Source: Escherichia phage JY01. Taken from it: 64,000 bases of DNA. The notes beneath the pieces were generated by a model. The model saw only the letters and a list, made by a program, of their open reading frames with translations, ran no database searches and was not told the origin of the DNA. The translations under genes and the position numbers were made by a program. Positions 36,581-46,987 of the stretch are shown piece after piece. The stretch lies in sequence record OR995200.1. One strand, 5' to 3'. How positions within the stretch are numbered: position 1 is the first letter of the stretch; each line of letters opens with the position of its first letter.

Positions 36581-37042
36581 TCATTGAGTTTTAATTACTG
36601 CTTTAGAAGCCTTTCCTGGTAAACGACGACTGTTGATAATTGCCATCCTGCATTGGAGTGACGGGTCTTTGAACTTCTCATTAGGTTTACAAACTGTAAA
36701 TCCAAGCCAAAGATTTCCATCTGTGATTTCTAAACGTCCAGGACGATATTCAACCCCATCAATAAAATCCTCGTCAATGTCAGGACGCGGAGGCATACTC
36801 AGGAATTCATTAACTTCTAAAACATGGTCTTTTATTTTGTGGAATAATTCAAAAACATATGTCTCATCAATCTCCCGTTGAATTGCACGATCAAGAAGAT
36901 GTTGAGAATATTTTAGATGAAACGATGAGACTCCTGCTGCTTTTGATGCCTCACGAATCTCATTGTTAATTTGACGAAACTCCGACTCAAAATGACGACG
37001 AAGCTTATTTCGACGGATAAAAACTTCTGTATTGATAGTCAT
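36581..37042 (-). CDS. regB: Endoribonuclease RegB
   Basis: 153 aa; sequence and position recalled as T4 RegB. Confidence 0.75.
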   Translation of the reverse strand: MTINTEVFIRRNKLRRHFESEFRQINNEIREASKAAGVSSFHLKYSQHLLDRAIQREIDETYVFELFHKIKDHVLEVNEFLSMPPRPDIDEDFIDGVEYRPGRLEITDGNLWLGFTVCKPNEKFKDPSLQCRMAIINSRRLPGKASKAVIKTQ

Positions 37043-37646: not shown

Positions 37647-37860
37647 ATTTGACTTCCTCACCAGTACATAAATCATATTCAACTAAACGAATAGGTTCAT
37701 GAATGCCATATCCCTGAACAGAAATTTCTGTAGTAGGATAAATTCCATCAATATCACCCATATTCCACGCTTCGTTAAATTGCTGTTCGCCTGAATTACT
37801 AAACCACTCGGCGAAAGCATTTAGCACATCTTTAGAACCTTCAATAATTATCTTTGCCAT
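37639..37860 (-). CDS. Hypothetical protein
   Basis: 73 aa ORF. Confidence 0.4.
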   Translation of the reverse strand: MAKIIIEGSKDVLNAFAEWFSNSGEQQFNEAWNMGDIDGIYPTTEISVQGYGIHEPIRLVEYDLCTGEEVKYD

Positions 37861-38222
37861 TACAAACTCTCGGTGAAGGTACGAGCGATAACGTCGCGCT
37901 GCTGTTCCGGAGTCAGAGAGTTAAAGCGAACTGCATAACCGGATACACGGATGGTCAGCTGCGGATATTTTTCCGGATGCTTAACTGCATCTTCCAGAGT
38001 TTCACGACGCAGAACGTTAACGTTCAGGTGTTGACCACCTTCAATTTTAACTGTAGGCTGTGGCTCAATTTCAATTTCACGGGCATGCAAACCGTAGAAA
38101 ATTTCTGGGTCTACAAAAGAGTCCTCTTTAAAGGTTTTAGAGACAATAATTCGTGCTTGAATACCATCTTCAAAATAAATAGTGCCTTTATGTGTGCCTT
38201 CAAGAATTTGATATGCTTTCAT
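37860..38222 (-). CDS. Autonomous glycyl-radical cofactor (GrcA/YfiD-like)
   Basis: C-terminal [29 protein letters not shown] glycyl-radical motif, recalled as near-identical to E. coli GrcA. Confidence 0.8.
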
Positions 38223-38229
38223 ATAAACC

Positions 38230-38559
38230 TCAATTAGAAAATAAATTTATCCAAGATTGTTCTTTAATTAAAAATGGCTCAGCATCATATGCCATTAAAC
38301 TTTGGGTAATTAATCCTTTAAAAGGTCCATCAATAAATTCCATGGTAAAATATGGAATTTTATTCATTAGCCGTGCATTAGGAGCAGTACACAAAACTCT
38401 GCATCCTTTGAATACACCTTTTTGTAATTTGTATTGCTTGGGATAAAATTCGCTCAAAATGTTATTATTTGCCAAAATTTCAAAATGATTCACCAATTTA
38501 TTTTTAATAGTTTTTGGCGAAAAATAAAGATATTCGAAAAGCTGTGTGTCTGTCATCAT
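38230..38559 (-). CDS. Hypothetical protein
   Basis: 109 aa ORF. Confidence 0.45.
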
Positions 38560-39098
38560 TGCATTCCAATCACAAAAAATTGAGGACGAACTGTTTCACC
38601 TGTTTCAGCATTATAGCTTCGACAACAGTGTTGTACCGTTTTAATATGGATATTGTAAATCTTATCCATATCAGGAGCTTTAATAGGTTCGTCAATTATG
38701 TACAAGATACGAGAAAGCGATAACCCACGGAATTTATGACCTTCATTACCGATAAAACTACGGACAGAATCAGTAAATAAACGAAAACGTATATCATCAT
38801 TAGAATAACGCGAAAATTCCTTTTTAATGTTATTTGCAGAAATTTTAGCGTAAGCTGAAGTATTAGAAAGAACAATAACTGTTCCGCCATCATACAGCCA
38901 ATTAGCAGCAAAGTTAGTCACAGCAATTGATTTACCGGATTGACGTCCACCATCTATACGAAGTGTGCAGTACTGTTTGAGCACATCTTCCATTGGTGGA
39001 AGATAATCATTCTTACAAATTTCTTCTACTCTAGCATCAGAATGGTGTGTAAAAGCATTCATCAGGGATAGATAAGGACCAGTTAAAAATGTTCTCAT
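38556..39098 (-). CDS. P-loop NTPase
   Basis: Walker A GGRQSGKS, Walker B-like LYIIDEP; start uncertain. Confidence 0.45.
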   Translation of the reverse strand: MRTFLTGPYLSLMNAFTHHSDARVEEICKNDYLPPMEDVLKQYCTLRIDGGRQSGKSIAVTNFAANWLYDGGTVIVLSNTSAYAKISANNIKKEFSRYSNDDIRFRLFTDSVRSFIGNEGHKFRGLSLSRILYIIDEPIKAPDMDKIYNIHIKTVQHCCRSYNAETGETVRPQFFVIGMQ

Positions 39099-39239
39099 TT
39101 TATTCTCTCTAAGTTTGGGCCATTCCGTGGCGCATGAATTGTCCATTTCTGTATTTACCCATTACCGCACTTGGGCTCGACCTTATCACAGGTTGGCGGG
39201 AATCCCTCACAGAATCATGAGGTCCAGGTTGTTCCCATA

Positions 39240-39713
39240 TTATTTGAACGATTTAACGTACTGAATAGAACCCTTACTATTCACAAAGGCAATTTTACCA
39301 TTTTTATTATACATGGTAGCAGTACGCTGATAACCATAGGTTTGTTTACCAGATTGATAACCAACTAATGCAAAATTATCTTCACCCATTTTATTCTGTT
39401 TAGCGCGAATGCGTTCATGACCATGTGCCATAAGAACCTTAGCATCACCAGTTGCAATGGATCGACGAGTTTTTTCATCTTCAACTGCATTAACAAAGTC
39501 GTCAAATGAATCAAATTTAGCATGAGATTTATTATACAATTTTCCATCTACTGCATAATTATATCCCTGTACATCCATCTCAACTTCTGTACCATCATCC
39601 AATACAGCAGTAATTTTTTGACCTTTTTTAAATTTCAAAAGATCAGTAAAAGATTCAGCAATAATTTGAGAATTAATAGCTGCTTCAGTGATAAATTCTT
39701 GATATGTTTTCAT
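39240..39713 (-). CDS. Internal-protein-like protein with capsid targeting sequence
   Basis: N-terminus MKTYQEFITE followed by A (LxE-type prohead protease site). Confidence 0.55.
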   Translation of the reverse strand: MKTYQEFITEAAINSQIIAESFTDLLKFKKGQKITAVLDDGTEVEMDVQGYNYAVDGKLYNKSHAKFDSFDDFVNAVEDEKTRRSIATGDAKVLMAHGHERIRAKQNKMGEDNFALVGYQSGKQTYGYQRTATMYNKNGKIAFVNSKGSIQYVKSFK

Positions 39714-39722
39714 GTGTTTCCT

Positions 39723-40139
39723 TTAAATGTAAATATTTTTACCGTAGTATTTATACCAGTGTGGCTTCATTAAAATTTTTTCATCGAGTCGTTGTTGACT
39801 CAATTTAATAGCTGATTTGCATGGATTATAATCATTTTTCCATTCTGCTGGAATATCGCTGATGTCAGGAACTTCAGTATCTTTTATATTGAACCCACGT
39901 TTTAAGCATTCCGTTATAATGTCTGATTGACGCTTTCGCAAAAATTCTAACTTATCGTAAAAGAACGTAACATGACCAGAGCCTAAAATAAACTCGGAAG
40001 ATATTTTAAAATCTTTAACCCGCTTACCATTTGCCACATGTTTACGAACTATACCAAAAACGCGTGGCAATTCACGGTATTCTGCGATTAAATGTTGATC
40101 AGCAAGTTCAGATACTAAAGTCAAATTAATACGAGTCAT
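39723..40139 (-). CDS. denV: Endonuclease V (pyrimidine dimer glycosylase)
   Basis: 138 aa, [17 protein letters not shown] matches T4 DenV as recalled. Confidence 0.9.
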
Positions 40140-40198
40140 TTTATCCCTCCAAGTAACTGTGAATATACTATCACAATTCTAGAAGAAAGTAAACAACT

Positions 40199-41167
<969 letters not shown>

Positions 41168-45965: not shown

Positions 45966-46041
45966 TGGTCGAGGCAGTAGGGATCGAACCTACGACCTAG
46001 GACTTAGAAGGTCCTTGCTCTTCCTTCTGAGCTATGCCCCG
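45966..46041 (-). tRNA. tRNA-Arg (anticodon UCU)
   Basis: Manual cloverleaf: acceptor 7 bp, D-stem GCTC/GAGC, anticodon loop CUUCUAA, T-loop, CCA encoded. Confidence 0.8.
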
Positions 46042-46045
46042 TAAT

Positions 46046-46121
46046 TGGGGTGACCGATGGGAGTCGAACCCATGACTACGAGAATCACAATCTCGAGTTC
46101 TACCAACTGAACTACGGCCAC
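46046..46121 (-). tRNA. tRNA-His (anticodon GUG)
   Basis: Manual cloverleaf; anticodon loop UUGUGAU, discriminator C73, CCA encoded. Confidence 0.7.
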
Positions 46122-46235
46122 ATTAATACCTACTCCAACAATCAAGATGTCTTCACACGAAATTAAGAGAAGAGTGATCAGTTCAACCCCTATAATCGCG
46201 TCAAGTAGATATTAATGTGACAGTTGTCACAAATT

Positions 46236-46310
46236 TGGCGGACGTGATAGGATTCGAACCTATAACCAATCGCTTAACAGGCGATCGCTCTGCCATTGAG
46301 CTACACATCC
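46236..46310 (-). tRNA. tRNA-Asn (anticodon GUU)
   Basis: Manual cloverleaf; anticodon loop CUGUUAA, discriminator G73, CCA encoded. Confidence 0.7.
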
Positions 46311-46314
46311 AAAT

Positions 46315-46401
46315 TGGTGGGGAGTGATGGAGTCGAACCACCCGAGTCGCAATGACAATGAATTTACAGTCCACACCGCTACCTCTACGGGATAACTCCC
46401 C
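46315..46401 (-). tRNA. tRNA-Tyr (anticodon GUA), long variable arm
   Basis: 87 nt; anticodon loop CUGUAAA; acceptor GGGGAGU/ACUCCCC. Confidence 0.65.
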
Positions 46402-46414
46402 TTAATTCATAATT

Positions 46415-46489
46415 TGGTGGCCCTGGGTGGAATTGAACCACCATCTGGCGATTATGAGTCGCTTGCTTGAACCTTCCAGCTACAGGGCC
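46415..46489 (-). tRNA. tRNA with CAU anticodon (Ile-lysidine or Met)
   Basis: Manual cloverleaf; anticodon loop CUCAUAA; CCA encoded. Confidence 0.7.
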
Positions 46490-46490
46490 T

Positions 46491-46566
46491 TGGTGCTGAT
46501 TGACGGAATCGAACCGCCGACCTTCTCATTACAAGTGAGTTGCTCTACCTACTGAGCTAAATCAGC
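46491..46566 (-). tRNA. tRNA-Thr (anticodon UGU)
   Basis: Manual cloverleaf; anticodon loop CUUGUAA. Confidence 0.75.
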
Positions 46567-46571
46567 AAAAC

Positions 46572-46661
46572 TGGCGGAGGTGATAGGATTCGAACCTATG
46601 AATCGCCGGAGCGACTGCCGGTTTTCAAGACCGGTGCATTCAACCACTCTGCCACACCTCC
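46572..46661 (-). tRNA. tRNA-Ser (anticodon UGA), long variable arm
   Basis: 90 nt; anticodon stem CCGGU/ACCGG, loop CUUGAAA. Confidence 0.75.
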
Positions 46662-46663
46662 AG

Positions 46664-46737
46664 TCTCCATACAAGGATTTGAACCTTGGACCTCCTGATC
46701 CCAAATCAGGCGCTCTACCAAACTGAGCTACACGGAG
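46664..46737 (-). tRNA. tRNA-Pro (anticodon UGG), CCA not encoded
   Basis: Anticodon stem CCUGA/UCAGG, loop UUUGGGA; T-loop UUCAAAU. Confidence 0.75.
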
Positions 46738-46747
46738 TAAATTAAAT

Positions 46748-46821
<74 letters not shown>

Positions 46822-46826
46822 AAATT

Positions 46827-46913
46827 TGGTGCGAGAAGTGGGACTCGAACCCACAAGGAAATCATTCCGCAGCATTTTAAGTGCTGTGCCTTTACCAATT
46901 TGACCATTCTCGC
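46827..46913 (-). tRNA. tRNA-Leu (anticodon UAA), long variable arm
   Basis: 87 nt; anticodon stem CAGCA/UGCUG, loop CUUAAAA. Confidence 0.8.
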
Positions 46914-46914
46914 G

Positions 46915-46987
46915 CTGGGAATAAAGGACTCGAACCTTTGCATCCTGGAATCAAAATCCAGTGCCTTACCAACTTGGCTAATTCCCA
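46915..46987 (-). tRNA. tRNA-Gln (anticodon UUG), CCA not encoded
   Basis: Anticodon stem CUGGA/UCCAG, loop UUUUGAU; acceptor complement exact. Confidence 0.75.

Follow-up and report, generated by a model that had tools for sequence, protein, structure and literature searches.

The closest described relative of the protein considered here is the large terminase subunit (TerL) of phage T4, gp17, whose N-terminal ATPase subdomain I (PDB 2O0H, 3CPE and 3EZK) combines a core of the additional-strand, conserved-glutamate (ASCE) type with a P-loop of the form Arg-Gln-x-Gly-Lys-Ser/Thr, an Arg-Gly pair ahead of Walker B and a Walker B element of the form hhhhDE. An arginine acting in cis from the P-loop is a hallmark of the packaging ATPases of T4, Sf6, P74-26, lambda and phi29 (PMC5727402). 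In a preprint of May 2026, T4 proteins were screened with AlphaFold 3 against the terminase sensor EcAvs2, and the product of the gene vs.8 was picked out, described as an uncharacterised ATPase-like protein that carries Walker A and B motifs and shares homology with the ATPase of the T4 terminase, and reported to be toxic together with EcAvs2 (bioRxiv 10.64898/2026.04.30.721860). Here we consider the vs.8 gene of Escherichia phage JY01 (38556..39098, minus strand), within a stretch of 64,000 nucleotides of sequence record OR995200.1 that we call the window, along with a pseudoknotted RNA-like element lying in front of it. The listed features of the gp17 subdomain are shared by vs.8, and the gene is best explained as an early-expressed, stand-alone derivative of the T4-type TerL ATPase core (N-subdomain I) that would act with its neighbour vs.7 as a dispensable accessory ATPase, a reading to which, taken as a whole, we give a probability of about 0.55. 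The TerL-like ATPase nature of vs.8 is already published and is independently confirmed here; what is added is a motif-by-motif membership test, a corrected start codon, the coupling to vs.7, the recognition that the T2 copy is a pseudogene, a subfamily that has GH[ST] in the P-loop and is probably inactive and, apparently new, the upstream RNA element at 39112..39239.

The initial annotation of the window had placed a protein of about 180 residues at these positions, between regB (36581..37042) and an internal-protein-like gene, and both its extent and its location hold. The minus-strand open reading frame is intact over 180 codons and a stop, its product begins MRTFLTGPY, and its assignment as a stand-alone TerL-like ASCE ATPase draws on the frame itself, a match to PHROG 1488, alignment with hhalign and an AlphaFold 2 (AF2) model; the upstream neighbour is the internal-protein gene Ip4 (39240..39713). 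Over 37800..40200 the DNA around the gene shares 98% identity with that of Tequatrovirus phages of the RB51/wV7 type, in which the gene is annotated vs.8 and the order in RB51 runs Ip4, vs.8, vs.7, vs.6 (GrcA-like), vs.5, vs.4, vs.3, regB, vs.1, vs, tk. Judged by sequence, the gene is the ortholog of T4 vs.8.

In the T4 reference, vs.8 is annotated as 219 residues long (locus L002, 3254-3913; NC_000866, 64253..64912), a form that was rejected because its first 39 or so codons overlap the structured non-coding element and their frame is not conserved. The same holds for a longer frame in the window opening at 39146 (196 residues), whose extension enters that conserved element. Over the roughly 130 nucleotides before the MRTF start the two phages are 95% identical, yet the window carries an in-frame TAG and an 8-nucleotide indel, and the reading frame of this region differs among phages; the MRTF start, which is that of the initial annotation, is therefore correct, and the true start in T4 is most likely the same ATG, about 180 residues before the stop. 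Database names for the orthologs are as varied as "endoribonuclease", "Endoribonuclease RegB" and "terminase large subunit". An identity with RegB was rejected, BLASTP against the RegB of the window giving E = 0.25 and the Pfam model REGB_T4 (PF10715) no match; the endoribonuclease names are annotation errors, and the terminase name over-states a partial homology.

Kinship with TerL emerges from profiles of the family. Against 177,635 distinct PDB sequences, the family profile returned T4 gp17 first (E = 1.2e-4), with the P74-26 TerL ATPase at 0.018. Alignment by hhalign with a TerL profile built from 20 T4-type TerL N-termini reached 97.3% probability and E = 2e-11 over 118 columns, residues 37-159 of vs.8 corresponding to 147-274 of gp17. 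The Pfam family Terminase_6N (PF03237) is matched by 19 of 40 family members (best E 6.8e-5), and in PHROGs the assignment to family 1488 ("unknown function", E = 1e-79) is followed by PHROG 2, TerL, as the second match (5.7e-5). A profile search had been proposed at the outset as the check on the motifs, and its outcome depends on the level at which it is made: scans with the single sequence all stayed below threshold, whereas the family-level profiles (hhalign, the PDB search and Terminase_6N) recover the relationship and confirm the motifs.

Motif by motif, the nucleotide site of TerL can be followed along the protein. The Walker A motif or P-loop, D49-GGRQSGKS-57 (38928..38954, minus strand; GGRQSGKS proper being residues 50-57, 38928..38951), is identified by conservation and by the gp17 alignment. 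It fits the ASCE pattern GxxxxGK[ST] as G50-GRQS-G55-K56-S57, and its Arg52-Gln53 is typical of TerL: R52-Q53-x-G55-K56-S57 corresponds to R162-Q163-x-G165-K166-T167 of gp17 (S161-RQLGKT-167), so that the invariant R52 stands in the place of the cis-acting arginine R162. Just ahead of Walker B, Arg124-Gly125 (38724..38729, minus strand) is invariant and aligns with the Arg-Gly of gp17; it lies between alpha2 and the Walker B strand, where P74-26 TerL has its R139, and Arg124 may thus be equivalent to the trans-acting arginine finger of the P74-26 type. Walker B and the catalytic carboxylate, L132-YIIDEP-138 (38685..38705, minus strand), are supported by the invariance of E137 and P138 and by the gp17 alignment, in which D136-E137 falls on D255-E256 (MIYIDE), and L132-Y-I-I-D136-E137 satisfies the ASCE pattern of hhhhD plus a catalytic Glu. 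Both motifs had been read from the single sequence in the initial annotation, GGRQSGKS as Walker A and LYIIDEP as a Walker B-like element, and both stand, the first conserved across the family and the second showing the pattern hhhh[D/E]E at residues 132-138.

Among 17 vs.8 homologs reaching down to about 40% identity, the invariant residues are D49-G-G-R-Q-S-G-K56, R113, R124-G125, E137, P138, G178 and Q180, with Asp or Glu at position 136 in every one of them; at the C-terminus F174, F175, V176, I177 and M179 are nearly invariant. When the comparison is widened to 40 members, down to 18% identity, G51, R52, Q53, G55 and K56 are still at least 90% conserved. The C-terminal strand, FFVIGMQ (residues 174-180; 38559..38579, minus strand), which is marked by its conservation and is the last beta-strand of the AF2 model, occupies the topological place of the C (coupling) motif of TerL. 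The hhalign comparison left gp17 T285-T287 unaligned, and by position only the strand may correspond to the gp17 coupling motif IIITTT.

The AF2 model (predicted local distance difference test, pLDDT, 79; predicted template-modelling score, pTM, 0.80) shows an alpha/beta fold in which strands at 45-47, 73-78, 107-111, 131-135 and 174-177 alternate with helices. The model, together with a Foldseek search (TM-score normalised to the query, TMq, 0.43-0.53), is consistent with a RecA-like alpha/beta sandwich: nearly all of the top 50 PDB matches are P-loop nucleoside triphosphatase (NTPase) domains, mostly of the ASCE/RecA-like kind, and they include domain 1 of helicases, RecD, UvsW and KaiC as well as the packaging ATPases of phi29, phi28 and P74-26. 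As this result is generic, the specific link to TerL is borne by the sequence profiles. The minimal ASCE fold is held in common with phi29 gp16, phi28 gp11 and the HerA-FtsK clade (Foldseek 5hd9, E = 0.011; 7jq6, E = 0.009). HerA and an FtsK-like coupling protein also appear as weak matches by sequence. In contrast, vs.8 shows no conservation at the place of the HerA/FtsK arginine finger, which lies between alpha3 and beta4; its conserved arginine is at the position seen in P74-26 and T4.

It might be asked whether vs.8 is simply a P-loop NTPase or kinase of a general kind with no kinship to terminase, its likeness being that of the universal Walker motifs, or else a functionless, decaying relic. 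Matches to curated families score low and point in several directions (AAA_14, AAA_30, HerA), the fold search speaks only for ASCE in general, and the T2 copy is a pseudogene. Nevertheless, a profile-profile alignment extending over 118 columns goes well beyond the motifs, gp17 heads the PDB sequences searched, the frame is intact across many genera and infection yields the protein in detectable form, so that this is the least probable of the explanations weighed here.

Several observations weigh against the derivation from a TerL core and against an active role in counter-defence. With the single sequence, Pfam yields AAA_14 at E = 0.015 and Terminase_6N at E = 0.077, both sub-threshold, the window protein scoring 13.1 bits against PF03237 where the gathering cut-off is 22; a PADLOC scan yields HerA at a sub-threshold E = 0.031, and the NCBIfam scan and phmmer against PDB yield nothing above threshold. 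T4 gp17 is not among the top 50 Foldseek matches, the best in PDB being helicase RecA domains at TMq 0.43-0.53. The adenine-binding Q motif (gp17 Y142-Q143), whose Q143 is invariant in the alignment of 20 TerL N-termini, is absent from vs.8: the hhalign match starts at gp17 147, and residues 27-40 of vs.8 are variable. The lid that in TerL transmits the movement of the P-loop arginine is missing, and the chemistry of vs.8 may accordingly differ. In a distant vs.8-like subfamily (P0055, P0062, P0065 and P0066), GH[ST] replaces GK[ST], the Walker B Asp-Glu is lacking and the C-terminus has Glu in place of Gly-Met-Gln. These proteins probably have no catalytic activity, so that at least some relatives of vs.8 would not hydrolyse ATP. 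Finally, among vs.3-vs.8 only vs.3 inhibits type IV Thoeris (PMC13243611), and the connection of vs.8 with anti-defence is one of neighbourhood only.

In its architecture vs.8 departs from TerL more than in its active site. While gp17 has 610 residues, vs.8 has 180 and does without the N-terminal 140 residues, including the gp16-binding N-terminus. It ends at residue 180 and has neither lid subdomain II nor the C-terminal RNase H-like domain for nuclease activity and portal binding. Unlike gp17, which is late, it is expressed early, and its place between Ip4/denV and vs.7 is far from genes 16, 17 and 20, adjoining neither the small terminase nor the portal gene. Having no lid, no nuclease or portal-binding domain and no Q motif, vs.8 is predicted not to be a packaging motor; it lacks several of the features that define TerL and would work in the manner of a motor's catalytic core. 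One alternative has vs.8 modulate packaging, joining or capping the gp17 pentamer or titrating the small terminase gp16 by way of the conserved interface between subunits and so tuning packaging or the terminase nuclease. Mixed oligomers are conceivable, as the arginine of the TerL subunit interface and the ATP site are retained, but the early timing of vs.8 against the late timing of gp17, the missing gp16-binding region, the distance of the locus from the packaging genes and the dispensability of vs.8 in T2 make such modulation very improbable.

That dispensability follows from the T2 copy of the gene (locus L069, 601-1136; PV648363.1, 52576..53111), which is broken into three frames by two separate 2-nucleotide deletions: T2 grows without it. 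In T4, by contrast with late gp17, vs.8 is early at both the RNA and the protein level, and its protein is detected (PMC9697503, supplement). Taken together with the retained nucleotide site, that is, the P-loop Arg-Gln, the Arg-Gly before Walker B and the Walker B Asp with its catalytic Glu, these facts frame the mechanism that we propose for an early, stand-alone descendant of the TerL core. The protein is predicted to bind ATP and to hydrolyse it, and it most likely forms an oligomer, with Arg124 of each subunit completing the active site of its neighbour as in terminase rings. It would not package DNA itself; together with vs.7 it would rather assist early infection as an accessory that the phage can do without, serving host take-over or host-phage conflict. 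With the ATP-bound terminase surface preserved, immune receptors that sense terminase could mistake vs.8 for TerL; its toxicity with EcAvs2 is on record.

Avs2-type sensors recognise the ATP-bound terminase fold, and an early protein of this kind may thus be seen either as a liability tolerated for the sake of some benefit or as a tool against the sensors. In the latter case, vs.8 would be a decoy, an ATP-bound look-alike of TerL that occupies terminase sensors (Avs1-3, Upx or others) without productive activation and blinds the cell to the TerL made later. Such a decoy would draw on the TerL ATP-site surface that vs.8 shares, on its expression ahead of TerL, on an AlphaFold 3 model placing it in the terminase pocket of EcAvs2 (interface pTM, ipTM, 0.84) and on its place in an operon with two proven anti-defence sponges, and an anti-defence role has been raised as a possibility by the authors of the preprint (bioRxiv 10.64898/2026.04.30.721860). 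However, the sole experiment reported has the opposite sign, as toxicity with EcAvs2 means that the sensor is activated rather than blocked; a passive decoy has no need for strict conservation of the catalytic Glu and the arginine finger; and T2 manages without the gene. We thus regard the decoy as unlikely, and the conservation of the catalytic Glu and Arg favours enzymatic turnover over passive mimicry. By description, vs.8 can be likened to Ksap1 and Ksap2, non-terminase activators of Avs2, which are small, lineage-restricted phage proteins with a terminase-ATPase-like core of sheet and helices that trigger a terminase sensor (bioRxiv 10.64898/2026.04.30.721860). More generally, vs.8 is one of many conserved T4 genes of unassigned function, and an early copy of the TerL core with its catalytic residues conserved makes concrete experiments possible.

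The stand-alone state is shared by nearly the whole family. A hidden Markov model (HMM) search of 1.84 billion representative proteins returned 48 relatives of vs.8, nearly all of 155-185 residues and stand-alone, and by tblastn about 1009 phage records contain the gene, nearly every one of them from a T4-like enterobacterial phage, those sampled falling in Tevenvirinae genera and relatives such as Marfavirus. Beyond these, BFVD holds proteins of 145-170 residues with a vs.8-like size and predicted fold (TMq 0.5-0.66, E = 1e-4 to 4e-7) from phiP4-3, JSF10, phiAS5, Aes012, phiRSL1, 201phi2-1, PhiPA3 and Ac133. They differ from vs.8 in being only 12-24% identical to it, most of them beyond the reach of the HMM search, and these predicted structures suggest a broad class of stand-alone mini-ASCE proteins in T4-like and jumbo phages.

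The initial annotation had described a stand-alone P-loop NTPase with no obvious partner domain. No fused domain is indeed present, and the description can be refined in that vs.8 has a fixed, translationally coupled neighbour, vs.7 (109 residues; 38230..38559, minus strand). The start of vs.7 overlaps the stop of vs.8 in an ATGA in eight genera, and a check of synteny in relatives, which had been suggested at the outset, places a vs.7 homolog directly downstream of vs.8 in T4, JS98, fGh-Ecl04, CHI14, Marfa, CIP9, VR7 and Roth78 (phmmer E = 1e-7 to 1e-29). The homolog in CIP9 (NC_048849; locus L007, 2007-2327) is unannotated and lies in an apparent gap of 310 nucleotides after vs.8, overlapping its stop. 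The possibility that vs.7 is the lid or nuclease fragment of a split TerL found no support, hhalign giving E = 0.86 and PDB and Pfam nothing; no similarity of vs.7 to gp17, PDB entries or Pfam families was found. The protein carries two GPFKG-like motifs. Its structural model is of low confidence (pLDDT 67), and the list of Foldseek matches is dominated by KOW domains (Spt5, NusG, L24), none of them significant (best E 0.038); from this model, vs.7 may be a small beta-barrel binder of nucleic acid or protein.

In the direction of transcription, vs.8 is the first gene of the block that extends from vs.8 to regB, and in a study that treated Vs.3-Vs.8 as a single block these genes were expressed from "the promoter of vs.8" (PMC13243611). 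Two products of this block are sponges for immune signals: vs.4 is Acb2, a sponge of cyclic GMP-AMP (cGAMP; PMC10449767), and vs.3 is TadIV-1, a sponge of N7-linked cyclic ADP-ribose (N7-cADPR; PMC13243611). A scan of the minus strand at 39099..39240 for promoter and terminator consensus sequences found none. What this interval does contain is a pseudoknotted RNA-like element of 128 nucleotides (39112..39239, minus strand), identified by a covariance model and by covariation, that spans from just after the Ip4 stop to about 13 nucleotides before the vs.8 ATG. In every genus examined the spacer before vs.8 is unusually long (78-217 nucleotides), and blocks of it are nearly unchanged where the vs.8 proteins are only 35-45% identical; between the window and T4 the element is 95% identical despite a different gene upstream.

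A pattern scan of viral contigs and metagenomes yielded 99 loci. Searched with a covariance model of 24 distinct sequences, the window has one copy and no more (39112..39239; 115.8 bits, E = 2.6e-31), while about 70 strong copies are found elsewhere. The layout consists of P1, a junction that forms the pseudoknot, P2, P3 and an invariant core, ACCUGUAAUAAGGUCGAGCCC..GCGGUAA. In an alignment made by MAFFT from sequence only, the 26-pair structure is 90.7% paired, as against 23-46% with slid partners, and half of the pairs (13 of 26) show compensatory changes, the observed values being reached by none of 500 shuffles, with the caveat that the structure was derived from the same sequences as were used for these covariation statistics. 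In the outer stem P1 each of the five pairs shows covariation (AU, GC, CG), and the pseudoknot pair 16:112 occurs in all four Watson-Crick types with no mismatch; a further pseudoknot pair, 18:110, was dropped for want of support. An alignment of 45 distinct sequences to the model has 95.5% of its cells paired, with compensatory change in 12 of 21 pairs. Folding of the spacer as a single sequence is not unusually stable (z = +0.8), and the structure therefore emerges from comparative analysis only. On that comparative evidence, we have high confidence that the element is a genuine structured RNA.

It is probably also a class of phage RNA that has not been described before. None of the 4227 Rfam covariance models matches at E <= 1 over 38000..40200, and when Rfam is applied to the window and four divergent loci only tRNAs reach the gathering score; the core sequence was not found in the literature searched, and representative genomes of bacteria and archaea, 185,579 in number, contain no copy of the element. 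Three pattern matches in Clostridia were set aside as chance, scoring no more than 10 bits with the covariance model. There are about 20 divergent copies (28-51 bits) that keep the core of about 32 nucleotides, their P1, P3 and pseudoknot sequences being entirely different yet complementary. These copies are found within phage tRNA clusters or next to them, and on the strand of the tRNA genes. One follows 3 nucleotides after a tRNA-Ser and is itself followed by an intrinsic terminator (L053, 6666-6776), another stands 15 nucleotides after the last tRNA (L118, 3479-3572), a third is inside a tRNA cluster (L090, 1318-1408), and seven (L073, L077, L086, L094, L101, L107 and L115) are 180-550 nucleotides upstream of tRNA-Arg(UCU). 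The copy at L058, like that at L053, ends in an intrinsic terminator, and the two terminators suggest a discrete small RNA. In the window, a cluster of ten tRNA genes (45969..46987, minus strand) lies 6.7 kb upstream of the vs.8 leader element in the transcriptional sense, and the covariance model finds no copy within it.

Parallels to both situations exist in T4 itself. The leader pseudoknot of gene 32 is used for autoregulation, and as in vs.8 it stands in the leader of an early or middle gene; the stable RNAs C and D, small RNAs other than tRNAs, lie together with the phage tRNA genes, as do the divergent copies of the element. Neither, however, shows a match in sequence or model to the vs.8 element. 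The element could be a processed small RNA, a leader that binds a protein or ligand, or a regulator of the vs.8-to-regB operon. Tentatively, and at somewhat less than even odds, the element and its surroundings can be read together as an undescribed class of pseudoknotted RNA, free-standing in or beside the tRNA clusters of other large phages, which in the T4-like enterobacterial phages has become a leader gating or processing the early vs.8-to-regB counter-defence operon, with vs.8 and vs.7 as the first products under its control or even as proteins that partner it. If the RNA is confirmed, it would represent a new structured RNA class in phage biology and would offer a handle on the control of the operon that encodes the Acb2 and TadIV-1 sponges.

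A different and distinctly improbable reading takes vs.8, as an ATPase of the nucleic-acid-motor type, and vs.7, with its possibly KOW-like fold, as an RNA-directed module acting on RNA, for example on their own leader pseudoknot, and thereby setting the translation or stability of the early vs.8-to-regB operon. The arrangement would favour it: in Tevenvirinae-type phages the element is in every case followed immediately by vs.8, or by an inserted internal-protein gene and then vs.8, and vs.7 is always coupled to vs.8; so would the prominence of KOW domains in the fold-search list for vs.7 and the precedent of gene 32. Yet that list comes from a low-confidence model and holds nothing significant, other phages carry the same RNA in or near tRNA clusters with no vs.8 adjoining, and no RNA-binding motif was found in vs.8.

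Some Karamvirus-like phages have two divergent copies in tandem upstream of vs.8 (L039, 5046-5306; L044, 8965-9226; L043; and L111, 307-567), while in Marfa-like Klebsiella phages (L006, L026, L032, L036 and L041) a gene for an internal head protein, MKTYKEFITEAKA..., is inserted between the element and vs.8. In the window it is Ip4, upstream of the element, that is the internal-protein gene, and the element thus seems to form a border where genes of this kind are shuffled. In T2 the P4 stem of the element, invariant elsewhere, carries T in place of G. The type IV Thoeris study reports T2 as sensitive although its TadIV-1 is functional, "possibly from insufficient expression" (PMC13243611), and if the RNA controls the operon, a mutated leader along with a broken vs.8 might explain why T2 under-performs against this defence.

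Among the remaining neighbours, vs.6 (120 residues; 37860..38222, minus strand) has a C-terminal glycyl-radical domain (Pfam Gly_radical, E = 2.8e-18; motif RVSGYAV) and is a phage counterpart of GrcA/YfiD, the spare part for pyruvate formate-lyase, that accompanies vs.8 and vs.7 in several, though not all, genera. A relative of vs.8 with 23% identity in MW358927 keeps the neighbourhood, with a lysozyme-like gene, the vs.8-like gene, GrcA, denV, regB, vs and tk, and a more distant one lies between topoisomerase II and rIIA.

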